Below, piece after piece: positions 18,941 to 64,000 of a DNA stretch of 64,000 bases; position 1 is the first letter of the stretch; each line of letters starts with the position of its first letter. The stretch is from positions 1-64,000 of the forward strand of contig LWCA01000051.1 of NCBI GenBank assembly GCA_001642005.1. Reading direction: 5' to 3'. A program made the position numbers and the translations under genes. The DNA comes from Intoshia linei. Taxonomy: Eukaryota; Animalia; Orthonectida. The notes under the pieces were generated by a model, which had not been told where the DNA came from, made no database searches, and saw only the letters and a list, made by a program, of their open reading frames with translations.

Positions 18941-21579
18941 TTAATAGTCATCATATTCTTTGTTTAGTCTTCTTCTTTTTAAAGCTGTAAAAAAATCTGT
19001 AATATCATTGGCGTTCACTGTCTAATAATTATGATTAGAGTTTCATTAATTTTACCCTTTTTTGTTTTGAAATGTCGCTTAAATGGCTCACCAATTCTTC
19101 TTTCATGTGTTGATATTCTAAAATAGAATTTAAAATATTTTATTTAACACTGAAACTACCGCAAGGTACTCACAATAATTTAAATGTTTTAAAAATATGC
19201 ATCATAGTATGAATTACGAGGGTTTCCTAAATTTTTCTTACAACGTACTAGTCATTTCATTTACATAAAATTAATTTTTTGTAAAAGGTGTCAGATAGTG
19301 ATTGTGCCTGGACAAAATTCTCGGGATTTTTACGATTTCCCAGAATTTCCCGACTAAAATTGAGACATACCTGTATTTGATTTATGTTTGTTATTACCAT
19401 AAAAATATAATTATATTATAATATTTAAAATTTACCATTTCAAAAATCCCACCACTAATACAATTTAATCAAAAATACCATTTCAAGCGCTCATGGAAAA
19501 ATTGTCTTACACCGATATTCTTTTCAAAAATCCACTTCATCAAACCACCAATAAAAATTCTAATTTTCCAGCCCTTAATGGAAAAATATCCTTTTTTTAA
19601 AACCCTCTTATTCCAACCACAAATAACTAACGCTTAAGGGAATTATCCTCTTTTTACAACATTATTTTGGAAAATATTATGAGTTGTTACGAACTGAAAT
19701 GCTATCATCAAGATTGTTAAAATTAAAGGAAGCCCTTATGACCGTTCAACCTACGTCAACACAAAATGAAAGAAATTTCTCTACTGCTTCTAATTTCGTT
19801 ACAAAACGTAGAACGAGTTTAAAAGACTAATCTATCAATATTATGTGTTTTAAAACACTTTTTCAACAACCTAAAATAAATAAATTTTTTTCTAATTAAA
19901 TTTGTAAATTTCAATCTAGATTCGTGTTATTTCATTATCATTATCATAAATTTCTTTTTGTTTCTAAAATTAATTAAGGTCTCTAAAATTTTTAATTTTT
20001 CTATATTATATATGAATAAAAAATTTTTATTTTTTCCGGGAAATCACAATCACTAGTGTCAGGTCAAGCAGATCTACCCAGAGAGAAGCCTTTGGTAGTG
20101 TAGTAAATTTGTGATAAAAATTAGATAGTTGACTATAATACCATTCAGCATGGACATTTGAGTTGCTTTTGGCATGGTGGTGAGAGCATCCATAGATTTT
20201 TGAAAAGTCGTTTTATTTTCATTTTTTAAATTTTCTCGATAATGTGCAATAGTGTCAATGTTTGAACATATAAAAGAACAGCCTGCTTCATCCAAAAGTT
20301 TCTAAATAAAAATAAATAACCATAAAATCTAACTTTACTTTATCACTTTCGGAAATTTTTTTTCTCCAACCATCTATAAAAAAGGCTGAATTGCTGCTAC
20401 AATTTGTATTTTGTAATTTTTTTTTATTAAAATCAATTAACGCTAAAAAAATAATAAAACATTGATAAAAATAAAAACCGTCTATACTCATAGAATATTT
20501 TTTCAAAAAAATCAATTTTTTTGTACAAACAGGACACAGAAATTCGGAAAATGAATCTGGATCCACTATAAATGTAGTTTCGATATGCTAAAATTAAAAT
20601 GTTTTAGTTTACATAGAAAAATTACATTCACGTGATACCAATCTTCACAGGAAACACAATGTATCATTTCTACATGATTCTAAATGAAATTATTTCTTAA
20701 ATTTCGTGTAAATACAGATTCATCTGGGTATTTTTTATGGCAAAAACAATATAGTCCAATGAAATTTTGTCCATATATATTTTTATCGTTGACTTTTTCT
20801 TTTTCCTAGTTATATGTATAAAGGTTCATGAAGAATTTTATACTTTTTGGAGTGAACACTCTTGCGTAAACTTTGAGTTTCCACAATCACATCGAAAATT
20901 TCTATAAGTATAAAATGTACATATCAATATTAACTAATCAAGTCATTATTACCGGAATCTCAGGATTCGTGAGAAATTTTTGATTGGATTACACAAAGAA
21001 AGAACAATTACACTTTGAGAAAAACTTGGAAACCGGGTTAAAATAAAAAATGTACCGATATCGCTGATTAAAAACGGAAAAGCTTTATAACCACAAAATA
21101 ATGAGTAATGTACCTCTTTGTATATAATTCGTATAAATCATGACCATCATGGCAGTTCAAACTACAACTAAAACATATCCCAGCCAAGTCGTTGTCGTTC
21201 CCACTCTGGCAGGTAACACACGAGTAAACCAACTGTCGGTGCATATATCCCTATTAAAAATTAGAAAAATTTGATAGTACAATACCTGCTTATAAGAACA
21301 CCTTTTTTCATCTTCTCCAACAAGGGAATTGGTCTTTTCGTCAATGTTTTCATGGTATCTAATTACATCCAACATTGACACGGAGTCATCGTCATTTTTA
21401 ACAGAATCAGATCTAGTTTGAGAAATTTCAGGCGTCGGCTCCAAACCATCTTTTATACTCGAACCACTGTTGGATTCCAACTCTTCACTATTTTCGTTTG
21501 TAGCAATAGGGGATTCTACATCATTTTCGGTTAAATCTTTCCAATAACTTTTTGCAGCATTATTTATATCGTCAGACAT
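18941..21579 (-). CDS. UBR7: UBR-box/PHD E3 ubiquitin ligase, multi-exon
   Basis: CSYKQ|GYMHRQLVYSCVTC...AGICFSCSLNCHDGHDLYELYTKR|NFRCDCGNSKF (UBR box); NFIGLYCFCHKKYPD; MIHCVSCEDWYH...EFLCPVC (PHD). C-terminus TVNANDITDFFTALK, stop at 18941-18943. Confidence 0.92.
19296..20055 (+). mobile_element. Non-autonomous hAT element with transposase C-terminal relic, in a UBR7 intron
   Basis: TIR TAGTGATTGTG / CACAATCACTA. TSD GTGTCAGA / GTGTCAGG. Internal [32 protein letters not shown] (about 19731-19830) is the hAT dimerization motif. Confidence 0.88.
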
Positions 21580-45816: not shown

Positions 45817-48800
45817 ATGTATGACTGGAAAAAGTTTTATCGTTTAATTGCAACAAAAAATTCCGTTAACGATGAAACATTGGCGAAATTGTATGGCTTG
45901 ATAAAAAAATATATCGGTTAGTTGAATCGAAAATAAAATTAGTCCTTTTTAGATGACCAAAACTCGAATAATGTGGATAAAATTGACAGTATGTCAGAAT
46001 CGATCGAACAAGCAGTAATGTCCATATTTGTCTTATTAGTAGAAAGTAATAACCCGAAACGACAGCACGTTTCAACGATAAATAGAATGTTTGGTTTAGA
46101 ATTGAACTGGGAAAAACTTGATTTGATTTTTGAAATGGTTTTTGAAATGCAGCTATGTATGGATTCCGAGTGTAAAGAAAAATTGTTGAGAGGTGAATTT
46201 ACATTGTCTAGCAATGGGGATGATGATTTTTACATTGACGACGAGGAGGATTTTGGAATATATCGAAATTTACCAGATTATTTTTACGATGTAAGTAAGT
46301 TTCAAGATCATAAAGTATTGAAGAAAAGTGAAAGAATTACTTTTATGAACCATGTTAACTTATTCATGGCTGGAACTTGGATTTCCTCTAAACTTAAAGA
46401 TCATACTTCTGAAATATCTGTGCACTTGTCTAATGATGAAATGGGCAGTATAATATTTGATAAATTCATTAGTAACGATTCCAATAACACAATTCAGAAT
46501 GATTTGGTTGATTTACTAGGATTTGACTGTTTAGATCTCATTGAAATTTTACTTGATAATAGGGATTTTGTTATTATGCGTAGCAAAATGCATGAAACTG
46601 ACATTGATCTGAAAAAATTGAAATCTACCCTTCCACCAGATAAATATTATAAATGTATAGTTCTTCATTCAGCAATTCTAAGAGAAAATAAAAATAAAGC
46701 CAAAATTACAAAATGTGTGCAAATTCCGATAGAGGTTTTAACTGAGTATGTGAAATACCCCAACGTTTACGATTCTTTCCAAACTGCTGTGTCTTTTGGT
46801 AAACGCAAAGCTCTGCCTAGTAATACTAGATATACTAAAACTGCAGAATATGAATCCATCATGGTTCCAGAAACTGAAAGGTCAAAATTAAACCTCGACA
46901 TTTCTCCCATTCATGTTCAGGGTTTGGACAAAATTGGACAAACCGTGTTTACAAATATTAATAAATTTAATTTGGTCCAATCGATCGTGTTCCCCATCGC
47001 GTACAACCACGACGACAACTTATTAGTTGCTGCTCCAACCGGTGCAGGGAAAACTAACATTGCTTTGATGACTATAGTCAGAACAATTAAAAAATTTACT
47101 GAAAATGGAGAAATTGATATCAACAAATTCAAAATCGTGTACATTGCCCCCATGAAAGCTCTAGCCACGGAAATTACTCGGAAATTGGCGGTACCTTTAA
47201 AATCCCTTGGTGTTAATGTGAAAGAATATACTGGTGACATGCGTTTAACAAAAACAGAAATTAAAAATACTCAAATTTTTGTATCAACTCCAGAAAAATG
47301 GGACATTATTACTAGGAAAAATAACAACGAAGTTCCCTTGTCCGACATTCTGGCTCTACTCATTTTAGACGAAATTCATTTGTTAAATGACGAACGAGGA
47401 TCGGTAATTGAAAGCATTGTGGCTCGAACTTTACGTCAAGTCGTAACTTCTCAAAAGCAGATTAGATTGGTCGGGTTATCTGCGACTTTACCCAATTATC
47501 TCGACATTGCTGCATTTCTCAAAGTTGATTATTTTAAGGGTTTATTCTATTTCGATGAACGGTTCAGACCAGTTCCGTTGAACAAAACATTTATCGGGGT
47601 TAGATCTACATTTTCCAATAACTGTAGAATTGCAATGAATCAAATTTGCACGGAAAAAGCGGCGGAAATTTTGGAACGTGACGAGCAAATAATTGTTTTT
47701 GTTCATAGCCGCAATGAAACGGTTAACACGGCAAATTTTATACTTGAAGAATTGGAGAGAAATCATGTCGGGATATATCACAAATTACACGCACACACGA
47801 AACATATATCGTATCGTTTAAAAAATTCTTCCAATGAAGACATTAAAAATTTATGTCATTCGGGTATTTTATTCCACAACGCTTCTCTTTTAAGGGAAGA
47901 TCGATTGGTCGTAGAAAACGAGTTCAAGAAAGGTTCCATCAGACTTTTAGTTAGTACTGCAACTCTAGCGTGGGGTGTTAATTTACCATGCCACGCTGTT
48001 ATTATTAAAGGAACTTTTATTTACGATGTCGACAAATCCAAATATGTTGACATTTCTCAGCTAGATGTAACTCAAATTTTCGGACGAGCCGGTAGGCCTC
48101 AATTTGATACTTACGGTGAAGCGTTTATTATTACGGAACACGCCAAAATGCAAAACTATGTGGATATGCTTTTGAGCAGTACACCAATTGAAAGCAGGTT
48201 TTTGACGCGATTAAACGAAAATTTAAACGCCGAAATTGTACTTGGGACCATTACAAAAGTAGAGGAAGCCATCGAATGGATGCAATACACCTTTATGAGC
48301 ATACGAATGAAACAAAACCCTCATTACTATGGAATAAAACACGTTGATGTATCTGAAAAAGATGTTTTAGAAAATGAAATGCGAAACATGATTTTGGTTG
48401 CTTGTAAATATTTAGATAAAGCTCAAATGATTAGATTCAAAGTTAAGCCCGGTTTTCTTTGTTCAACGGAAATTGGACAAATTGCAGCTCATCACTATCT
48501 AAGTTGTGATACTGTAGTGCATTTTAATAAACAACTGAAACCAAAAATGGATGATTTATCCATTATTTTACTTATCAGTGGATCCTCTGAAATGCTACAA
48601 TTGAACCCTCGTTTTGAAGAACAAGAAGAATTATTTTCTCTTAACAATCGAGTTTCTTATCCTATACAACTGGAAACATCTACAGAATCTGATATCCCCA
48701 GGAATAAAAACAATAGACCTTCTCGAAGACTTAAAAAATCTAAAACCATAATAGACAACGCTACAATGAAATCAGGCATACTTTTGCAAGTCTATTTGGA

Positions 48801-51800
48801 ACATTTACATGTTGGTATTCCATCTCTGTCATCAGATTTGCGATACATTAATAAAAATGTAAGTCGAATTGTTGGTGCATTGTTTAAATTAGTTTTGTAT
48901 AGAGGTTATGCATATATGGTTGACAAAATTTTAAAATTTTGCAAAACTTTTCAGTACAAGTGGTGGTATTTTCATCATCCTTTATACCAATTCCCAAAAG
49001 TGTTGAGTGATCGGATCGTTTATAATCTAGAAAGATATCGATTAAGCGTGGATAAAATTAAGGAAATGATGCCTTCTGAAATTGGAAATATCATAAAAAG
49101 CAATCCAATGGGTGCTACTGTTAAAAGTTTAGCCTGTTGTTTACCAAAATTGGATATTGAAGTTGTTGTTAAACCAGTATCCAGTACAATATTGAGAATT
49201 TTGCTGTTCATCAAACCCGATTTCGTATGGTCTCGCTATCACAATAAAAACGGAGAATCGTTTATTGTTTATATTGTAGATCCGTTAACGTTGCAAATTT
49301 ATCATTATGAGTACATTCACTTTAATCATAAGATGATGGACCGTGAGGAACCTACACAGCTTAATTTTTGTATCCCTATTTTTACTCCTTACCCAACACA
49401 ATACTTTGTTTATTGTGCTTCAGAAAACTGGATATGTGATGATACCATTGTGCCAATAAATATAAGTAATTTAATGCTACCGACACAATACGAAGAGCAC
49501 ACTGAACTACTTGATTTAAATCCGCTGCCCATTGAATCTTTGGGTAATCTTCATTATCAGAATATATACAATTTTACCCACTTTAACCCCATTCAAACTC
49601 AATTTTTTTTCTGTTTATACCACACTGATAAGAATGTCCTTGTTGGAGCTCCAACTGGGTCAGGAAAAACAGTAGCTGCTGAATTGGCCGTTTTAAACCT
49701 TTTCAATACAGATTTTTCCAATTCTGAAACCAAACGACCGTTATCTGTTTACATAGCCCCTTTAAAAGCGTTGGTTAGAGAACGATTTCAAAATTGGCGA
49801 GAAAGGATTGGAAAAAATTTAGGGAAAAATGTTATTGAATTAACGGGTGACGTCAGTCAGGACAGTTTTACCATCAATAGAGCAGACGTAATTATTACTA
49901 CACCCGAAAAATGGGACGGAATTACCAGAGGTTGGAAAACCAGGAGTTATGTTAGACGGGTGAAACTTATCATTATTGATGAAATTCATTTATTGGGAGA
50001 AGAGAGGGGCCCCGTTATAGAATTTATCGTTTCCAGAGCAAATTACATTGCATCTCAATTATCTACGAGTGTAAGAATAGTTGGATTGTCGACCGCTCTT
50101 TCGAATGCAAAAGATTTGGCAAATTGGTTGCAAATAAGTGACTTTGGTTTGTATAATTTCAGACCGTCTGTGCGACCCATACCTTTAGAGGTGCACATTC
50201 AAGGGTTTCCAGGAAGGCATTATTGCCCTCGAATGGCTACAATGAACAGACCGTGTTATCGGGCTATAGAAACTCATAGTCCAAATAAATCAGTCATTGT
50301 GTTTGTGTCCAGTCGAAGACAAACCAGAATAACTGCGTTTGATTTAATTGCGTATGTGGCCTCTGAAAAAAATTCCAAAAAATGGGTAAAAATGGATGAA
50401 CAAGAAAAGCAGAATATCACGTCTACTATATCGAATAACGATTTAAAACAAACAATTATTTGGGGCGTAGGGCTTCATCATGCTGGTCTATGTGACTCCG
50501 ACAGAAAGACAACAGAGCGATTATTTTTAGAAAGAAAAATTCAGATTCTGATTGCAACCAGCACTCTCGCTTGGGGTATAAATATGCCCTGTCATTTAGT
50601 GATAATTAAAGGAACTGAATTTTATGACGGAAAAACGCACACTTATGTAGATTTTCCGATTACTGACGTTCTACAAATGATTGGTAGAGCTGGTCGACCT
50701 CAGTTCGATGAACGAGGTTATGCTGTGATAATGGTTCAGGATCTAAAAAAAGATTTTTATAAGAAATTTTTATATCTACCCTTTCCAGTGGAATCTAGCG
50801 TTCCTTCTGTGCTAGAAGACCACCTTAATGCTGAAATCGCTTCTAGTTCAATAACAAATTACGATGAAGCTTTAAAATATCTGACTATGACATTTTTTTA
50901 TCAGAGATTGTTACAAAATCCCGGCTATTACGGTGCAAAATCAAAAAAAACTACTGAAGTACACGCGTATATTTGTACATTGATTATAAAAAAAATTAAC
51001 ATGCTGATTGAAAGCGGGTGCGTGCAAACGGTCAGTTTGCAAGATAAATCCTTTGACAACAATTTTCCTGTTCCAGGCACCAAAATTGATAAAACTAAAA
51101 CTCTGACAAGCTTATTTAACGTGTGTGGACAAACTAAATTGAAATGTACTGAACTAGGTAGAATAGCATGCGTTTATTACATTAGTCATATTACTGTATC
51201 GTTTTTCAATAAATCGTTATCGTCAGAATCTTCAATCAAAAGTCTTTTGAAGATTCTATGTTATGCTGACGAATTTTCTCTTATGCCGATTCGACACAAT
51301 GAAGAAATATTAAACAAAAATCTTTCGGATAACGTCCGATATCCTATTCTAGAATCTGAATGTGATTCTCCCTACGCGAAAACATTTTTATTGATCCAAT
51401 CTCATTTTTCTGATTTGTCCTTTGAAGTATCAGACTACAAAACCGATTTAAAATCAGTTTTAGATCAAATCCACAGAATACTACAGGCTTTAATGGACAT
51501 TTGCTCACTCAAACAATTTGCCGGTACATTTATTAATTTGTGTTTTATTTCTCAAATGATTATTACTGGTCAATGGATTGACGATCCTCAATGTTTTCAA
51601 ATTGATAAAACCAGAAAACTATCTAAGCAGACTGAATTAGTCTCAGTTTTAAAGACTATGGACAAAAATTCTGTGGATTATATAAACAGGTATTTTGATC
51701 ATATACCAAATCACCTTAAAAATTCAGCCATAAAATTTGTAAATACTATTCCCCGGCTGAACGTTGAAGTTTACCTTGCTCATAAAAGATTGAATCTGAA

Positions 51801-52098
51801 CCAAGTGAATATTATATCTTTTAATAATGATGTGATAATTACCATTAAAATGAAATATTTAACAATCGTAAAATCTAACGACAAAAAAATGATATTTTTG
51901 GCTTTAGTAGAACCAGTCACTGATCTACTCATTTGTACCAAACGGGTAATGTTTAAAAACGAAAACAGGGTTGAAAGGATGACGGTTAAAATTCCAAACC
52001 AAATGTATATGGACAGAAACGTTTCTCTCAATCTCAACATCCTACACAATAATTTTATTGGATTGGATCAAATGTATTCCATTAATTTAAAATTCTAA
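45817..52098 (+). CDS. ASCC3: ASC-1 complex subunit 3, tandem Ski2-like helicase with Sec63 domains; one 36-nt intron (45917-45952) then a 6.1-kb exon
   Basis: Two helicase cassettes: APTGAGKT/DEIH/GLSAT/QIFGRAGRPQFD and APTGSGKT/DEIH/QMIGRAGRPQFD. PGRHYCPRMATMNRP is ASCC3-type rather than BRR2-type. The upstream exon MYDWKKFYRL...KKYI joins in phase. Confidence 0.93.
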
Positions 52099-52120
52099 TG
52101 TAAATTGTGTACAAAATAAA

Positions 52121-53611
52121 TTATGATTTATTAAATGTTGACATTGTTCCAAAATACTTTTTCTGGGCATCAGTTTCTTTAGATTCAATGGCATTTGGGT
52201 TGATAATTTCGAGTCCTTGTAAGGGAGTAAAGGCAACGCTGGATTGAGTTCCACCTGTATTTCTGCGAATACTCGTTGCCACTCCAGCCTGTTTAATGAC
52301 AGACATTTTCCCACTTTTATAGAGTTGGTTTTGCAGGGTTTTAGACATTCTGGCTTTAGTTTTCGAATCAACCATGGCTGTTCTAATTTTTCCAGATCCA
52401 GATTTCCCCAAATGACCCAGTGAAGGACCAAGAATTTCATGGTAAGCATCCTGTTCAATTTCACCAAACGTCATGCGGTTTGCAGCCTTTCTCACATCGG
52501 TTATTCCTAACCGTTCTTTCATTCGACGGTAACGTTTTCCACCCCGTTTTTTATGAGCATAATCAATTGGTGCGGGTAGAGACTTTATTCTTTTTACGGC
52601 GGCAGGTTCTAAAAACTTTTCCATCTTCATTTCAATTTGCGACCTCAGTTGTCTTCCCAATTCACCGTCTAAAGAAGACTGCTTCATGTCAATTCGAGCC
52701 GCCAGAGTAGCTTTGGCTGCAACTGTCCTAGCAATTTTTTGACGAATATCTGTGGGGGCATTTTCAACAATATCACAGGACCAAATGTATCCACGATTAG
52801 ATGTTTTCGTTATGGTAGAAAACCCACTTAAAATTTTTCGTTTAGCTCCAAGTAATTGCATACAATTCGCGGGTATTTTACAAAGGGCTTTTAAACCACC
52901 AGCACAGCCTAATAATTTAGCGGCAATAGACGGGGAAACAACGACAGCTAAATTTGGAGCTATAAACTCCATTCTTGATTCAATGTAGTCCAAAATATTG
53001 GTTTTTTCGGCGTATAAATTTATAATTGTTTCAGACAACCGTTTGCAATGTTCAAGTTCTTCTTGGTCTAATTTAACTCCTTGACTCGACGAAGCACTTA
53101 CACTTACTACCATAACTGTCGCATGGTTCATGTAATCAAGCATTTGTTGGTCACTTTTCCCTCTTTCAATATCATTGCCAAGTCGGCCCACAGTTCTGCA
53201 ATAATCTATTGGATTTGAGACCAGCGATTCCAATTCAGGAAACCTTTTACTATAAACGAGTCTCAGTTGTCTGTCAAACCTAGAAATGTCGTTATCAATC
53301 ATGGCCACAATTTCATTTGCATCGACCATTAATTTGTAGTGCTTGTCAAAGTCTAGTGTTGCTGAATCAACCTCAATGTACTTGTTTATTCGATCGGTTA
53401 AATTTGTCAATTTTTCATCATCCATCAAATTTTCAAAGTTAAAACTAGACAGCGAAATGTGCTGGTTTTTGTTTAGTTCAAATAATGGTATAACATTTTC
53501 TTCCGGTTCATTATTTTTATTGTCGTTTCCTTTTAAATGTTCGACTTCCAGGTTTTTATCTTCATATGCAATTTCGTCAAAATCTGCTAATAATTCATCT
53601 ACTAGCGACAT
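52121..53611 (-). CDS. PRPF31: U4/U6 snRNP protein Prp31, intronless
   Basis: MSLVDELLADF, YSKRFPELESLV, YIESRMEFIAPNL, KKRGGKRYRRMKER, ANRMTFGEI, GTQSSVAFTPLQGLEIINP. Uninterrupted 496-aa ORF. Confidence 0.97.
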   Translation of the reverse strand: MSLVDELLADFDEIAYEDKNLEVEHLKGNDNKNNEPEENVIPLFELNKNQHISLSSFNFENLMDDEKLTNLTDRINKYIEVDSATLDFDKHYKLMVDANEIVAMIDNDISRFDRQLRLVYSKRFPELESLVSNPIDYCRTVGRLGNDIERGKSDQQMLDYMNHATVMVVSVSASSSQGVKLDQEELEHCKRLSETIINLYAEKTNILDYIESRMEFIAPNLAVVVSPSIAAKLLGCAGGLKALCKIPANCMQLLGAKRKILSGFSTITKTSNRGYIWSCDIVENAPTDIRQKIARTVAAKATLAARIDMKQSSLDGELGRQLRSQIEMKMEKFLEPAAVKRIKSLPAPIDYAHKKRGGKRYRRMKERLGITDVRKAANRMTFGEIEQDAYHEILGPSLGHLGKSGSGKIRTAMVDSKTKARMSKTLQNQLYKSGKMSVIKQAGVATSIRRNTGGTQSSVAFTPLQGLEIINPNAIESKETDAQKKYFGTMSTFNKS

Positions 53612-53712
53612 GACTTAAAAATTTTACCAAACAATAACAAATTAACAATCAAATTGAAAATATTTCAATAGTGACGGTTGCTCGGCTATTAAAATTAAAA
53701 TGAAATTAATTT

Positions 53713-56700
53713 ATGTTTTATACCAGAAGTAGGCTTACAAACTTAATTTTTCATAAAGTGTCTCTTTTTTCGAAATTATGTTACTTTGTAAAATTTTCTT
53801 CTAAACCACACTTCATTCCTAAACAGCAACATATATTTAAACAAACAGACATTTACATCATGTATAAGGAAAATTTAGGAGACAAGTCTTTTAAGATAAA
53901 AAATGTTGCTCAACTAATTAGTTTCAAATCTATGATAACAAACGAACTTTTGGAAATTAAACAAATTTTTCATGATAATAATTTCCAATTGAAAGTGGCT
54001 GGAGGAGCAGTTCGGGATTTATTGGTTTCAAATTCTACTCCCCACGATTTAGATTTCGCTACTACTGCTACGCCTGCTGAAATGGTTGAAATGTTTAATA
54101 AATTGAATATACGAATGTTTAATTTCAATGGAGAGAAACATGGCACTGTTACCATTAGATATAAAGAAAAGGTAGAATAGCCGATAATTGAATTTGATTA
54201 ATTTTACAGAATTACGAAATTACAACACTAAGAATTGATCGACTTACCGATGGACGCCATGCAAAAGTTGAATTTATTACAGATTGGTATTATGACGCCC
54301 TTCGTCGCGATTTAACTGTTAATTCATTGTTCTTGGGTATATTTTTCAAATTTACAATAATACATACATCTTACAAGATTTTGACGGGAATATTCATGAT
54401 TATTTCAATGGAATTCAAGATATTGAAGATAAAAACATTCAATTTGTCGGAAACCCCAATAGTCGTATTCAGGAAGATTATCTCAGAATTTTTCGTTACT
54501 TCAGGTAAAAATGTATACAGACAACCAGATTCTTAAAATCTAACAAGTAAGTTAGATTTTAAGAGTTATCATAATTTAAAAATTTTTTAATTAATTTTTT
54601 TACTATTTAAAATGTCTGATTGGTAAAAACATATTACTAACCTCTTAAAGTATAATTTAAGCATTTTATTGATTGTGTTAATTATGTAGTTTGATATTTT
54701 CCATATTGTGGCAATCATATCATTTTTGTCTTGATTTATCTTTAATTTTTTAAAAGTTCATAGATGAGTAGATAGTTTAAAATTTTATTAATTTTCCCTA
54801 AATTACAATTACACGTTTCAATTCGTTTAATCCAGAAAGAATCCTTACGCACCGAGACTCCTCTTCGGGTCTCGAGTATGACAGGCTGGGATCGGGTTAA
54901 ATTGTTTCGTTATTAATAAAATTTAGTCACATTTTCTTATAATAATATTATACCTTATGCACTTTGATTGTATTATTAACTTTTTTATATAAAATGAAAA
55001 TACATTACAAATATGTTAATAACTTAAAAATGAAATTGATCAAACTTCCTATTTTTATTGAACGGAGTGTATCTGCTGGAATGTATTTATTAGCATTTTG
55101 TCATACTTTTTGATTACGTGCTTATTGTGTCCCATTTAAAGTTGTTAAAATATTAATGTATTGTCAAAATTATTATCAAATAAATTAATCGATATATTTA
55201 AGTGGTGTTACATTTTAAAATGGCATACTAAGAATTTTTTATTATTATAGCTAATACTTACGTTTCGTGTCCAATTTAGTGAAATTAAAAATTATGATCA
55301 TATCTCAAATGGTTGACCTACAACGTCATTAACTTAATTATTTGATCCCATTTTTGTTTAAATAGTATTGTCCAAAACACTTAACATTTCACTAAAATTA
55401 ATGAGAAATTTAAGTTTTAAAAATTTTGTATCGAATTTGTCTCATAGTTGGTGGTACTTGTCTAGTAATAAGCATAAGTTTTAAGTTGGAACTTCCAACC
55501 CCTCATGATACTTTTCAGAAAATCATTTTAAAAACCTAGAAAATTATGACTAGTATAAATTAAGCAAATTTTCAGTGATTAAAATAACTTTTAGATTTTT
55601 TTATCGACTTTGTGATGGTGAGAATCATAACAAAGAAAGTATTGAAGCTATAAATGACAATCGATCTGGAATTGAACGTAAGTATTTTATTTTATTTGTT
55701 GATATACAACGAGGTTGTATATCAACGTTTTTTCATAATTCGTCAAAATGGGTGACGCGATATATTTTGAAATTTATTTTAGTTTTTTATTGCAGATCAT
55801 ACATTCCAAAAATTACATTAAATGTTCAAAGTAACAATTGTCAACTCTTTCAAATATTTGATTTTTTTTCTAGAGTCGATTTATTAAAATTTAGAATTGC
55901 ATTTCGCGATTTTTTTAATGTATAGCCGTCATTTTAAGATTTCCCAATTTGATATATGAATTTTTGAGATTTGTCCTGCCACTACTGTTTATTAATAATC
56001 ATTATTAAATATTAAACTATGTATTTAGGAGTGTCCGGTGAACGAATTTATCGTGAAATTAAATTAATTCTTTCTGGTAAAAGATGGACAGATTGTCTAA
56101 TAAAAATGCACGAATGCGAACTTTTTAAATATATTGGTAAATTTATTATAATTTACATAAGGCTTCTCAAAATGGGCGATATCGCTATCAAGGGGCCGAT
56201 TTTAAAAATTATAAAAACTTTTTTTCTAAACTATGTAATTTACTTTTAAACTTTGAAGAAACTTCTTATTCTACTTTTTCATCATCATACCCGGTTGAAC
56301 GTGGATTCAGTGTTGTAATGAATTTATTGACCAAAAATAGGAATAGATTACAAATATTCGACCGTGAAGATTTCCGATTGATGTTGACTGACATAAAAAA
56401 TTAGTAGATCAATATTACATTTATTTTTCATATTTATTATTGGGGAGTAATTAATTTGTCAGTATTTCTTTAAAATAACTAAATTATTTAATTATAGTAT
56501 TACTGATATTTTTTAATAAAAAATTTTCTGTATTTTCAACATAAAATTGTTCTACGTTTGGTAACAAAATTAGAAGCAGTAGAGAAATTTCTTTTATTTT
56601 GTGTTGACGTAGGTTGAACGGTCATAAGGGCTTTCTTTAATTTTAACAATCTTGATAATAACGTTCCAGTTCGTAACAACTCATAATATATTTTAAAATA

Positions 56701-57597
56701 ATGTTGGAAAAAGAGGATAATTCCCTTAAGTGTTAGTAATTTGTAGTATTAATAAGAGGTTTTTAAAAAAAATATTGGAAAAAGGATATTTTTCCATTAA
56801 GGGTTGGAAAATTAGATTTTTTATTTGTGGTTTGATGAAGTATATTAAAAACTTTGTAAATATATCATAATCAGTTGAATCAAAAAAATTAATTAATAAA
56901 TAATTATTGAGTAAATTTTTAAATACATATTATACAACGTAGTCTAAAATGTTTTCAAGGGGACGTTGAAAACATATATTGCTAAAAAGGGGGCGGTATA
57001 CCAAATGAGTTTGGTACCTCTGATTTACATTGTTAATAAATTTAATTCCATTTTGAGGTTTACCAAATGTAAATTTAAGCCATTTCAAAAAAGTATCGAA
57101 AACTTTGCCATCGAATAAAATCATGGAAATTACGAAATTGGTCTGTTTATTTGATTCTATAGATCAGGTTTTTAATTTTTAATCCCACTTTAATTGTTTA
57201 GGTTGAAATATTTAGAAATAGGTGTAAAATATCAAATTTTGAATACAAATTGCTATGCTTCATTATCGAATCAAAACTGACATTTTTTCAAGTTCCAGAA
57301 GAAACACAAATCAAAATTGCCAAAAATTACCTTGTTGATGATTCTAATGAAACCTCCCGCAAAATGATACAACAAACCTTGCTTTTTTATGGCAATACAC
57401 AAATTCACATTATCGATGAATGGAAAATACCAAAATTTCCTGTAACTGGAACAATGTTGCTCAACAAAAATGTAAAAAAAGGACCATTTGTAAAAAGTGC
57501 ATTAGATGAACTGAAAAAAATATGGAAAGATGAAAATTTTCTGTCCACATCCGATAAATTACTGCAACAATTGAACCCACAGTATATAATTAAATAA
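53713..57597 (+). CDS. TRNT1: CCA-adding tRNA nucleotidyltransferase, multi-exon
   Basis: [10 protein letters not shown]...[73 protein letters not shown]. Confidence 0.95.
56265..56405 (+). mobile_element. hAT (Charlie/Buster-type) transposase C-terminal relic
   Basis: [40 protein letters not shown] resembles the recalled FPSSYLVERGFS...KKRNRL motif. Confidence 0.75.
56553..56841 (-). mobile_element. Partial inverted copy of the 19296-20055 hAT element, in a TRNT1 intron
   Basis: Reverse complement of about 19530-19810, e.g. TTGTGTTGACGTAGGTTGAACGGTCATAAGGGC. Confidence 0.8.
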
Positions 57598-57840: not shown

Positions 57841-60800
57841 CTAATCTTGTTTCGTTTGGTGTATTTTCATATGAAGGGAAATTAAATTTGCCTCTTCGCA
57901 GCTGTAATCACATATAGTACAAGAATTTGATTTTTTTGCATTGTGGCACGAAATATGTTTAATGAAACCATAATTATTGAAACATAAATAAGGACATTTG
58001 CTACAAGTGTACATTTTAGAGTCAACAAGTGAATGTTTCTGCCGTTGAACGGTAGCATCGATTAAATTTTCTAGGGTATTATTTTTCATAGTATACAAGT
58101 AGTGCTTCTTTGCAAAATTATTCAAATGATCAATATTATCATTGATTAATTTCATTCTAACGTTAAATTCTTTATTGGGTGGATAAGGATAAACTTTCTT
58201 TTTAAAATTTATAATTTCATTTATTTTTTTATTTTCATTTTCTTGTCCGTTTAAAATAGACAAATCTGTTGAATCCATTCCATCATTCAATACGCTTGAA
58301 TCTTGAATACGTTTATTTTTGTAGTTACTAGAATGCACCGCAAAGTGTTGCACAAGATGTCGTTTTCTAGAAACCCAGTAATCGCACAACGTGCATTTAA
58401 CAAAATTTTCGCGTTTAACGTGAAATTGTAAGTGTTTGTAAAATGTATCCTTCATCTTCGTGTCATATGGACACTTTGTGCAATAATATATTTGTTTTGG
58501 GTGTTTATTAAATACACGAAAATTATCCTTTTGGGTTGTAGAATGTACATTTAAATGTAATAACAACTCGACTGAATCGTCTACAAAATATGGACAAAGG
58601 TGGCACCTGTAACGAGATAAAAATCTGATATGACTATTACAATGAATTTCCATTGCATTTTTATCAAAACCACGATAACCACACATGGTACAAGTGTAAA
58701 AATTGTTAAATTTTTTTAAATACCCGAGATGAGAATTTTGATGTTTTAAATTTGTAAATGATTTGGTTTTGGAATTGACTAAAACATTAGCAACATTCAA
58801 AGAATTAAAATTAATCATTTTAACGTTTAAATTATCTATAAAATTTTTTTCGGCAAATTTCCTATATATCCCGCTTTCACGAACACTTGAATGTACATTT
58901 TCTAAATGCAAATAAATTTTCCATTTTTTCCATTCACCAAAACTACACAATTTGCATTCGTAACGATACTTTTTATGCATAACGTATAAATGATTGTCTG
59001 CGAAATTATACAAATTTTGGTTGCAAATAAGACATTCATAACTTTGGTACCTTTTTACTGGAGAATCATTTTCAAAATTCGTAATAAACAAGTGCGCCAA
59101 ATATCCCTTTAATAAAACAGTCGGGGAATAAGTGACATATTCTTCAATAGATTCAAATTTAAATTCTGAATTTGCGTGACATTTAAGAAAGTGCGTGTCC
59201 ATTTTTTTAGAATAATAACATTTGAAAGGACAATAACTACACAAATACCTATTGCATTCCACGATTGTTGATTTTACACATTTTTTATTTGTACATAAAT
59301 GTTCCACAATTTGAATCAATAAATTAGATGCGTAGTTGCATTTAAAACACTGGTATGGCTGAGGACAGAGATTGTTTTTAGTTTTATCCAAAATACAATC
59401 ATCTGACAAGTTGTGTTGTTGGATGTGGCAGTTTAAGGCTTCTTTGTGAGTTTTATCGTTATTCATAGGGAGAATTGAATAGGCCAGTCTGCCGTTTTTT
59501 GAAAAAACATAACATTCTTGAAAATTAAATTCTGATTTCTTAGTCTAAAAAAAGCATAAATTATAATAATATTTAATAATATACTAATTGCATATTTTGG
59601 ATTTTTTCAGATATCTTATCATAATCATGCATAAATATTTCAGAGTGTTTTTTGTGTAAATGGTACTTTATATTCGCCTAAAATAAATCATTAAATTTCA
59701 AATTGAAAGATCTCATGAAGGTGGGAAACCAGAAAAACCAAGGGCGGTCTTCTAAGCAATTAGCAACCTTATTGAAAATGAAAAAAATGAAATTAGTTTT
59801 TTATCAGCATGGATGAACTTCAAATCAAAATTTAACCGACAAGACCGGTATATGTGTAACAGGAAGTTTTTTTAATCCGCCTACTGAATACATTAATATT
59901 TATTAAATTTTTATATAAAAACCTTTCCATATAAGAAATGTGTACAAAAACTACACTTGAACGTCATACATGCTTGATTTTCATTGATATGTTGAACAAG
60001 GGAATCTTTATTCTTGTGAAAGAATAAACAAGATTGACATTTAAACATGTACTTGTAATTAATTTGATTATATTTTTCCATTTTTACATTTGAAGCTTGT
60101 CGTAATTTGTCACATATAGATCGTTTAAAAGAAATGACGCCTTTGTATTTATTGGGAAAATTACACTTTCGACGATTTTTTAATTTCTGGAAAGTAGTTT
60201 TCGAAACTTGCAAACTTGATATTTTTCCATAGTTGTCATAAAAATTATTTTGTGCCTTATCTTGACTTAAATCCAACGAGTTTAATTGACAATCAAGAAT
60301 ATCAGTAATAGAGAATTTGGTGGGCTCTTTAATTTTTAATTTAATTGCAGTAAAATTATTTTTAAAAGTATCAGACGTAGAAACGATTGTTTCGGATTTA
60401 ATAGATTTGGAATGTATTTGTTTAATACTTTGCGAGTCACAAATTTGAAATGTATGAACGTTTGTATTTGATTGTTTGCGCAAGTTTGAAATTTTTTTAT
60501 TTAATTCAGTCAAAGATAAATTTGAGGTTTCAAATGAATCAATAAGTTTTGTTTCCGTATCATTCATGGCTCGACATAATATATTTTCTTGGTTAATATT
60601 AGTTTCCAGTTTTATAAATTTATGTGGAATAATTTCAGAGAAATCGTGTTGCAATTGACTATTTACATTATTCATATTTTGCAATTTTATAGATTCACCA
60701 CTATTGAAATGTTCATATAATGGTAAACCTTTCAAACTTTGATCATCATAAATACATTGGCTGTGGCGTTTACTGGCTATGGTATCTATGGTCTTAATGG

Positions 60801-60852: not shown

Positions 60853-61407
60853 TCCTTAAAATTGTTAGATTATCGCTCAATTGTCCAAAAAATATGTAGC
60901 ACTGGTAATTTGATTTGTCTGGAATTGAAAATTACAGGTCCACAGACAATAAGATCATGGTGATCGTGCTTAATGCCAATTTTTATAAGTTGAAATTTAA
61001 ATTATGTGCACTGAAACATGTAATTGTTGTATTGTTCTGAATTATTTTTCAATACATGCCACATATTTCGGTAAAATTAACAGTGACATGGATTACTTTT
61101 TTTAAATGATCAAATTAATACAACTTAATACTAATATTTTTATGATTTGACTCTAAAATGCACTTTGATTTAGTTTAGATTTCAATTTTGAACAGTGGTT
61201 CCCAAATTTTTTACTGTTGCAACGCGGTCAAAAATTTAGGTAAATATTTGGCGACACACCCAATATGTAAATTTTTTTTGACAATTCAAATCGATTTGCC
61301 CGAAAAATTTGACTGGGTTTTTCTGGAATAGTCTCCAAAAAAATGTGACATAATGTTAAAACATTATTAAAATGACTACAAAATTTTTGATATAATTATT
61401 TTTAATA

Positions 61408-61716
61408 CAGTGGTTGTCGATTTAAAGCACACTTGTTTGTTTTTGGTAGATTTAAAAAGAAAAAAATATTAATTTCAACATTAAATACTAAATGGATACA
61501 TTTCTTATATTGCGGGTACTCTATTTCCTATTTAAATGTGAATTCTCATATTTTAATAATTTTGAAAAATTAAAAATAAAGCACATATTTATTTTAAACC
61601 ACAGCATTTATTGCGAGTTCTATTTTTCATATACATTATCTTTAGAAAATCTCGAAAACATTAAATTTAAAGTACGCTATTTTTCAGAAAGCCGTGGTTT
61701 AAATCGACAACCACTG
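61408..61716. mobile_element. Tc1/mariner-pogo type MITE
   Basis: 23-bp TIR CAGTGGTTGTCGATTTAAA(G/C)CAC (22 of 23 match), flanked by TA on both sides. A related end lies near 43460-43480. Confidence 0.88.
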
Positions 61717-62959
61717 TATATATAATATTTTTGATTTGTTTGAAATTGTTTATTGTGAAAACCTAAAAAAATGATCCGCTATTAGATCATCAGTAATCAT
61801 TTTATAATAAAAGTTAATACTATACAGTAAAATAAAAAATTTGTAATAATTAAGGGTTATTGAATATAATTTGTCAATAAGTTTGAAGAATATTCAATAA
61901 AGATATATGGGTGGAAATCTAATAAATTGAATAAATTCCTTCAAATTTTTTTTCATTTCAAATACAAATTTCAAAATCACTTTGTATATAATTTTAGTCT
62001 AAAACTACAACAAAGTATAAATTTGTTATTATCATTTTTATTACAATGTTGGTAAAATTTAACCGAAATGTTTTTAAAGTGCTAATTCCGTTAATTATTG
62101 ATACCAAATTGTTATTTTTTACTCACCAACAGCAGATACTAAATATACACCATCATATTGAAAAAGACAATATCGGTATTTACTATTTTTCTGAGATTGA
62201 AGCTATTTATGACAATTTTGAGGATTGTACTGTTTGTACTTTATTGTTAAGATTATACACACATTTTGTTTAATAAATTAAAAAATAGGATCATAAAATT
62301 GTTATTAAAATTCTTTACGAAAATGTTAACAAAATAAAATTAAGGTGGAATAATTTACTTTTAATTAAAAGGTAATGTGATATGAAGTGTCCACCGTTGA
62401 GAAAAGTGTGTGAACCCTTGGTTTGCACTTTATCAATGTATTTTTCATGGTTATGAGATTATTAATTTCGTCTTTTACCTGGTTTGATAAATATTACATA
62501 TTCATGTATATAGTGAAAAGGGGTTTTATTGTATTTACAATATACATTATAATATTCTAAATTATAAATCTTTGTATGATAAATTGAAATGATTAAGCGT
62601 TTTCTTCAGTTTTTCGTAATTATGAGTTTTTGGTATTAATAATTCATTGTCTATTTTATTTTTGGGTGAAATTGTAGTTGAAATTGATTTTCTCTGTTTT
62701 TTTGGTTCAGGTTCTTGAAATTCATTATTTAAAACTTCGATTTGTAACTCTTTTTCTGGTGAGATCTTGATAATTTCTTGTGCTTCTTTTCTGATATTTT
62801 TCTTATCCATATCCGAATCGGCTAAATAAGATAATTAAAAAAAATAAACAAATAAATTTAATACTGTAAAAAAGTTGAGAATTAATATTAAATTATTAAT
62901 AATGTGAGGCTCAGTCACCAAACAAAATATTGAACTATAATTTTAATTTAAGAAATTTC

Positions 62960-63240
62960 AAAATTATATAAAGCTTCTCCGTCTTGCATATCCAAAATTT
63001 TGAGTAATAAGGATAATTGATATACGTAAATGATAGTTTTATTCAGATGACAGTGAAGATTATGAAGATGGCTCTGTTGCATTTGACACCTTTAACGAGT
63101 TTGTTGTTGCGAGAACATTAGAGTCTCTCTCGAAAGTTATTCATAACGTTAGGAAGATTGTAAAATAGTTCAAAAAGAGTTCAGTCAAAAATTATATGTT
63201 ACAGAAGTATGTATAGAGGGATCATAGATTAAATACAGGT
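62960..63240 (+). mobile_element. hAT transposase relic (internal fragment)
   Basis: The frame from 63046 reads DDSEDYEDG...SKVIHNVRKIVK*FKKSSVKNYMLQKYV*. This matches the recalled hAT block KVRKxVKxFxxSPxKNxxLQKYV after an acidic stretch. Two in-frame stops. Confidence 0.7.
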
Positions 63241-63346
63241 GTACCATTTAGAACGATGCACTTGTTAAAACATTTCATATTATGAGTGCACTGACGAAAT
63301 AAAGAACAAATCAACTGTATAAAAACAAGTTTGTTGTTAAACAAAG

Positions 63347-64000
63347 TTGAACACTAGGGGTGTGACCAAATTTTATAAATTAAGTCCTGTATCGGCAAAA
63401 GTTGTAATTGACTACTATCTGTCCGGCCATAAAGGACATGATCACTCCATAATTAGGAGTCACTTGTCCTATGCATGGTTCTCAGTGGTCATATTATCGA
63501 TGATAGCTGAGTCCTTATGGCTCCTTATAGCTGAGCCCCGGATGGAGAGTAGATAAAATATATAACTTCACAAAATGTATACTACTACACGATGTTCCCA
63601 GGGAATTAAATGTTATCATGACAAAGGATAAAAATAAAATGTTTGACTTTAAATCTGTGGTATAGTACGATATATCTTTTGGATTAGCGAAGATAAGCGC
63701 TTATTCATCAGGAGCACTCCCACACCTTTACACTTTCTTTGTAACTTACCTTGCATTCATGACAAATGTGGATTATTTGAACATGATTATTACAAGGGAC
63801 TCTGATACACAGTGTTATACTGATGGCCATACGTGTTGTGCGATATTTAAGAACACAAACGGTATTGCAAACTACTGGATATGTTGCTGATAAAATTATA
63901 GAACCCAAAAAGGACAAAAACAAATTGGTCAGATTCATTAACGAAACCAGACTTAATTTCAAATTCGACTCAGAAGACCTCTCAATGACTGAGGCAATAC
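63347..64000 (+). pseudogene. Endogenous viral element: decayed rhabdovirus-like (Mononegavirales) nucleoprotein, runs off the window
   Basis: Three consecutive frames: VVIDYYLSGHKGHDHSIIRSHLS / CILLHDVPRELNVIMTKDKNKMFDFKSVV*YDISFGLAKISAYSSGALPHLYTFFVTYLAFMTNVDYLN / SVILMAIRVVRYLR. These are colinear with recalled rhabdoviral N blocks, including G(L/I)SxKSPYSS. Two frameshifts, one internal stop, no intron needed. Confidence 0.72.

Follow-up and report, generated by a model that had tools for sequence, protein, structure and literature searches.

A probable decayed nucleoprotein fragment of a rhabdovirus-like virus in the genome of the orthonectid Intoshia linei

Is the end of this Intoshia linei contig the remnant of an RNA virus gene, and if so, how complete is it, how did it come to lie beside animal genes and does it serve any purpose there? 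The window, i.e., the whole stretch of 64,000 nt that we analysed (contig LWCA01000051.1, positions 1 to 64,000), had been described preliminarily as ending in a rhabdovirus-like nucleoprotein (N) gene that entered the germline as cDNA of an N mRNA and is now pseudogenised. We find it probable that the locus is a broken, 5'-truncated copy of a rhabdovirus-like N, an old insert in the orthonectid (Intoshia linei) germline that was duplicated and is decaying without function. This reading rests on colinear pieces that are homologous to N, on two frameshifts, on the presence of the stretch in genomic-type DNA and on a second copy that has also decayed. We class the element as a pseudogenised non-retroviral endogenous viral element (EVE).

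The element lies on the forward strand, and all coordinates below refer to that strand unless marked otherwise. Piece A (63395..63517) belongs to a frame that is open from 63341. Its viral homology begins at about 63400-63410, with AKVVID at 63395, such that the start at 63347 given in the preliminary description is about 50 nt too early. The first break (63503..63539) is a frame-shifting insertion that holds a second copy of ATAGCTGAG and is absent from the sister copy discussed below. A frameshift had been placed near this duplication, and the ATAGCTGAG pair is indeed found at 63503/63527. Its copies are, however, 24 nt apart, which is a frame-neutral spacing. That is, the repeat marks the insertion, and the length of the insertion rather than the spacing of the repeat shifts the frame.

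Piece B (63540..63662) starts with GWRVDK at 63540 and runs into an in-frame stop codon (63663..63665), which is seen in the window. Piece C (63666..63788) follows in the same frame and carries a degenerate RNA-binding motif, GLAKISAYSS, at 63681-63710. A second frameshift between about 63789 and 63811 precedes piece D (63787..63999), i.e., 71 open codons up to the window end with SVILMA at 63811. The peptides quoted in the preliminary description are all present in the sequence, and its positions for the stop codon and for GLAKISAYSS are exact. The GC content per 100 nt is 0.29-0.41 in 63400-63999 versus 0.15-0.33 in 61500-63399. The first ~195 N residues are absent. The element is a fragment, i.e., the middle and probably C-terminal part of N, and not a gene.

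Support for an N origin comes from two kinds of profile. Among 24,736 Pfam models, Rhabdo_ncap is the top match of the middle frame when the stop is read as X (E 1.1e-4, profile positions 238-308 of 410), though the 21.7 bits of this 115-residue fragment are below the curated gathering cut-off of 26 bits. The profile comparison that had been suggested for the locus thereby points to the expected family. Piece A has no Pfam match. We also compared all 135 stop-free frames of at least 58 aa from the window, among which only piece C matches a viral nucleoprotein family (E 0.009) and none matches another viral gene. A better match to a cellular or transposon protein had been named as the outcome that would speak against N. 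On this point, piece C alone does not exceed likely chance matches of the 135 frames, e.g., IFT57, CTK3 and ParM.

For the second kind of profile, natural N genes were collected with a DNA pattern built on the G(L/I)SxKSPYSS motif as given in an excerpt of PMC4234470, which yielded 27 loci with an N ORF in 26/27. A 79-member N panel was compiled from IMG/VR, taking the best 80 of 84 loci by alignment and obtaining an N protein from 79. All panel members tested match PF00945 (19/19), and the panel profile matches 12 solved nucleoprotein sequences. On this profile of 424 positions, the best whole-profile matches of pieces A, B and C are found at 199-216, 243-268 and 279-303, respectively, i.e., in the same order and with the spacing that their DNA predicts, and hhalign extends piece C up to N residue 317. 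The earlier statement that conserved N blocks occur in order is thus borne out. Individually, piece A reaches 19.5 bits (0/60 shuffles get there), piece B 13.5 bits (2/60) and piece C 29.2 bits (0/60; hhalign probability 72%).

The element as a whole obtains 32.0 bits, compared with at most 24.2 bits in 150 shuffles and at most 26.0 bits elsewhere in the window (127 blocks of 1 kb). The respective frameshift-aware path stays in the middle frame and extends across neither shift. On the forward strand, the best score outside the element is 19.9 bits. Taking the N proteins one by one, 7/79 match the window at E<=0.05, all of them within 63300-64000. At E<=0.5 and using 26 N queries, 8/10 rows fall into the element and 2 at 19267-19350. 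Six of the nine defined positions of G(L/I)SxKSPYSS are kept in the element's motif, and the histidine of the P-x-(F/L)-H pattern named along with it in the preliminary description is out of place. Among the near-invariant N columns within the span (n=17), 6 are kept, 4 changed and 7 uncovered. Of the marks of PF00945, the central N blocks in order and a degenerate G(L/I)SxKSPYSS motif are present, and both the Pfam and the panel tests identify the element as homologous to a non-retroviral virus protein.

Searches for individual relatives return little. A PDB sequence search finds nothing with the middle frame, and with the profile of both copies it finds 2 weak, unrelated matches, none of them to a viral chain. 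No viral protein is found in the large protein searches. Word-indexed searches retain 0/8 candidates in one case and one protein out of 965, P0121, in another. Scans for related loci give 0/4 stretches in viral contigs and 0/159 in metagenome contigs, and Rfam has no match in 61000-64000. An AlphaFold model from a 4-row alignment has a pLDDT of 36, and Foldseek with this low-confidence model returns nothing at E<=0.001, to which we give no weight.

For piece D, the preliminary description had read the frame after the second shift as N that is open to the window end. The open frame stands, and one of this length occurs in 31/2000 shuffles. The N match is weak, since the local score of piece D is not above that of shuffles (23/60 get there). 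Its best 25-residue diagonal among 20 tried is exactly the expected one (5.9 bits). Piece D is therefore a likely, if weakly supported, continuation of N. Two other matches of piece D were taken as chance, i.e., a related-locus match of 1/20 stretches to a 97-kb contig (E 3e-4, relative to the candidates only) and a ParM_N match (E 0.007).

Within 1.84 billion representative proteins, HMMER identifies a single match, P0121 (E 3.4e-9), which is Intoshia linei A3Q56_07923 (OAF64296.1), annotated as hypothetical and located on a 4,664-nt contig. It matches the window at 63410-63517 and 63459-63710, with 65% identity to piece A (37 aa from 63410) and 54% identity to piece B. Compared to the window copy, of which it covers 63410-63710, this sister reaches about 20 N positions further 5', ends at the motif and has its own local frame change. 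P0121 also matches Rhabdo_ncap on its own (E 0.037), its 13.4 bits being below the cut-off of 26. Its residues 41-240 obtain 29.6 bits on a 26-member N profile and its residues 41-166 about 19.0-19.5 bits on the 79-member profile. Combining both copies, the two-copy profile matches the 79 viral N with a probability of 91-92% (E ~1e-6, 111 columns, N residues 179-291) and a score of 46.7 versus at most 25.8 in 100 column shuffles. With independent profile tests and a second decayed I. linei copy, both the rhabdovirus-like N origin and the pseudogene state of the preliminary description are upheld.

Next to its N part, the gene model of A3Q56_07923 includes other sequence: P0121 residues 170-326 comprise a PHD finger followed by a stretch with look-alikes of the FLYWCH/MULE cluster, below the bar for naming a family. 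Judged from the protein sequence, this join may be a chimera made by the gene prediction, or else the N fragment may lie beside or within a Mutator-like element. Nothing in the window matches the PHD and transposase-like part.

The two copies are 64% identical over 85 codons, counted in the clearly homologous blocks that were hand-picked from the alignment. We compared their differences with a neutral expectation that assumes drift at ~0.2 substitutions per site, under which about 2 stops should arise as well. Here, 12/31 differences are conservative versus 35% expected, such that the copies differ as neutral decay predicts. This is consistent with duplication and decay of a single old insertion, and not with two selected viral genes. 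An origin of the copies from two separate viruses under selection is unsupported, since the changes look neutral.

The window stretch is found in six sequencing runs (X1-X6) from two studies. In X2 and X5, eight host introns with canonical ends are spliced out, which marks both as RNA-type runs. Their joints in 54169-57200 and 59544-59922 show host introns of 34-41 nt beside others of 245-1,090 nt. X1 has none of these joints and reads through the host introns, i.e., it behaves as genomic DNA. A single gap-free X1 contig covers 63363-64000 and 148 nt beyond, which gives the element's presence as DNA. In X2, which is from the other study, a gap-free 700-nt contig of depth 6.5 covers 63363-64000 and 62 nt beyond. 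Since both frameshifts recur gap-free in the X1 and X2 contigs, they are not assembly errors. Both contigs differ from the window at the same three places, one of which is inside the stop codon at 63663-63665. X3, which has a 154-nt piece on the element, also reads another base within this codon, so the stop is not fixed. Differences between X1 and the host sequence of the window are about as frequent (9 in 2,982 nt). Independent samples and decay come together here, as the two studies share both frameshifts and the three other letters. None of the listed pieces of X4, X5 and X6 falls on the element, and those of X1 leave out ~62550-63215, but such holes prove nothing.

The X1 depth is 32 on the element compared with 4-14 on seven listed host pieces, which hints at 2-4 near-identical element copies, although depth is no copy number. 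This hint, the contig at 63363-64000 in a spliced run (X2) and the X3 piece are also what an improbable alternative would draw on, by which the viral origin is the same but the element is kept as an antisense, piRNA-like source of small RNAs against a related virus. A spiralian precedent is available in the rhabdo-like N EVE of the dog whelk (excerpt of PMC6085071). The X2 depth on the element (6.5) is, however, not above that of the X2 intron pieces (4.1 and 7.6), so there is no sign of transcription beyond a background of pre-mRNA or DNA. Furthermore, the neutral-looking drift between the copies would erode any match to a live virus, and our literature search found no paper on Piwi genes in Intoshia.

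We now turn to the DNA to which the element, a decaying insert in our preferred reading, is joined in the assembly, i.e., to animal genes. The window encodes a Sec63/DEAD helicase, Prp31, a PolyA_pol-domain gene, a C2H2 gene, PP2C, MED6 and a MEIS domain. The identity of Prp31 to its 119 listed homologues is only about 44-56%, and where these are named they come almost exclusively from animals. The neighbourhood suggests that the source is a fast-evolving animal whose genome is AT-rich. The frames of the helicase (2,051 codons, forward strand) and of Prp31 (497 codons, reverse strand) are both uninterrupted within 45943-53614, run towards each other and end with hardly any spacer between them. 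A 90-codon open frame at 62562-62834 (reverse strand) has no Pfam match. Contigs of depth 89-134 cover 62347-62821 in X2, X3, X4 and X5, and this frame is likely an expressed small host gene of unassigned family.

Several repeats accompany these genes. X1 depth rises to ~3,600 in 62010-62411 and to ~380 in 56308-57009, the latter within introns of the PolyA_pol-domain gene, versus about 8 otherwise, i.e., both are high-copy repeats. At 61394-61730, 37-nt inverted repeats (86% alike) lie ~340 nt apart with TA adjoining their ends, which resembles a MITE of Tc1/mariner type. A weak match to a hAT dimerisation domain at 19627-19827 (forward strand, E 0.003) is possibly a transposase remnant.

Immediately left of the element, the depth tables delimit a repeat-rich flank (63237..63404, no strand assigned) with loose ends at 63237, 63331, 63352 and 63404. 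It includes a high-depth repeat at about 63237-63331, and the stretch 63352-63404, which also occurs in another sequence context, ends where the viral homology starts. The left junction passes through these repeats, and no listed contig from X1-X6 spans it to connect the element with unique host DNA. The evidence for a germline insertion at this exact site is therefore the assembly itself. Within 62801-64000, neither a target-site duplication nor a gene-end signal nor poly(A) was seen; the 3' end, with any poly(A), would be located past 64000.

Upstream of the element, contigs of X2-X6 (depth 3-31) cover 62865-63323, which has no long open frame, and an acidic 43-codon frame without N similarity is found at 63037-63168. 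This is possibly a non-coding or decayed transcript. It was also considered as the absent N-terminal part and rejected, the one frame tried there (63037-63165) being without N match and forward-strand scores outside the element reaching no more than 19.9 bits.

The unbridged repeats of the flank bear on a second alternative, namely that the N fossil stems from the parasite's worm host, or from some other animal sequenced along with it, and became linked to parasite DNA via the 63237-63404 repeats during assembly. The element is also at most ~2.6 kb from an end of the 66,591-nt contig, and X2, the best holder besides the source, is recorded as another organism. Against this stands that in the DNA-type run X1 the depth of the element exceeds that of single-copy parasite genes, which is unusual for a contaminant, and that overlapping pieces of equal depth reach left to 63302. 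In addition, a second copy is found in an I. linei record, and X3, which holds part of the element, has the same recorded organism as X1. We therefore regard such a misjoin as very unlikely. That the N similarity is chance and the stretch a decayed cellular or transposon coding sequence, as the low single-piece scores, the 19-33% identity to viral N over the 64 best columns and the PHD and FLYWCH/MULE-like parts of the sister gene model could suggest, is the least credible reading and already largely refuted by three colinear pieces with the right spacing, by two copies that match N independently, by scores of the element (32.0 bits) and of the two-copy profile (46.7) above their nulls, and by a PHD and transposase-like part without counterpart in the window.

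The preferred reading, i.e., an old N insert that was duplicated and decays without function, allows the following course of events. Non-retroviral EVEs originate from viral mRNA that a reverse transcriptase of the host has copied into germline DNA. Here, a negative-strand RNA virus would have infected the germline or the plasmodium, and its N mRNA may have been reverse-transcribed by a host retroelement and inserted. The absent first ~195 residues could reflect a 5' truncation, which given established EVE biology fits reverse transcription of an mRNA, or a later loss at the repeat. Subsequently, the insert would have been copied together with some flank, and the copies presumably drifted neutrally. 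If piece D continues N, the gene end would be expected about 100-150 nt past the window and near the X1 contig stop, which is suggestive only. By its N sequence the source virus appears rhabdo-like; membership of Rhabdoviridae would need the L gene.

EVEs from N genes are a well-known kind and the mechanism is not new; the value of this case is in its host and its virus. The host range of rhabdo-like viruses is extended to a phylum of minute parasitic spiralians, and among the 1.84 billion representative proteins searched the source virus is without a close relative. Furthermore, the 'hypothetical' A3Q56_07923 can be re-labelled as partly viral, and the element provides a probe to seek the living virus in RNA of the parasite and of its host.

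According to an excerpt of PMC6396948, the I. linei proteome contains an RdRP of a viral family, probably from horizontal transfer. Together with the element, this permits a test of whether several genes in I. linei derive from one virus. A bolder scenario, which we rate as a long shot, combines these observations: a deeply divergent rhabdo-like virus of an undescribed lineage infected Orthonectida, its N fragment was captured and spread by a DNA transposon and is still transcribed for small RNAs, and the I. linei RdRP came from the same virus. Spread by a DNA transposon is suggested because the sister copy adjoins PHD and FLYWCH/MULE-like sequence and the window copy adjoins repeats and looks amplified. 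If true, an animal genome that is among the most reduced would have kept several genes of an orthonectid virus.

Finally, we compare the element with known systems. With the animal rhabdovirus N of PF00945 (79 from IMG/VR), it shares the order and spacing of the central blocks as well as the degenerate G(L/I)SxKSPYSS motif. Its identity to these proteins is 19-33% (mean 27%) over the 64 best columns, compared to a median of 41% (minimum 24%) of the viruses among themselves, a distance that arose in part through decay once the fragment was inserted. No nearest genus stands out among the 79 viral N. About 64-110 columns are alignable, at ~25% identity.

In our literature search, outside whose scope most subscription papers lie, no rhabdo-like virus or EVE was reported in Orthonectida and no paper pairs Intoshia linei with 'endogenous viral'. 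'Intoshia' is also absent from the supplements of PMC12548735, PMC10101049 and PMC6396948.

Rhabdovirus-derived EVEs are described for sandflies (PMC10974309), ticks (PMC10675110) and copepods (discussed in PMC5958147), each in excerpt. These arthropod elements are alike in being N-gene fragments in host DNA. The I. linei element differs from them by its host, a strongly reduced parasite among the spiralians, and by a source virus to which nothing closely related has been sampled.

The most similar case is the rhabdo-like N EVE of the dog whelk (PMC6085071). Both elements comprise a rhabdo-like N only and reside in a spiralian host, no polymerase was detected alongside either, and both can be amplified from DNA. 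The dog whelk ORF can be placed in a tree near lyssaviruses and, as excerpted, yields antisense 5'U small RNAs; for this EVE, as for those of Aedes, a role as small-RNA source was proposed. The I. linei element differs in being frameshifted and truncated, in belonging to another phylum and in having a diverged sister copy.
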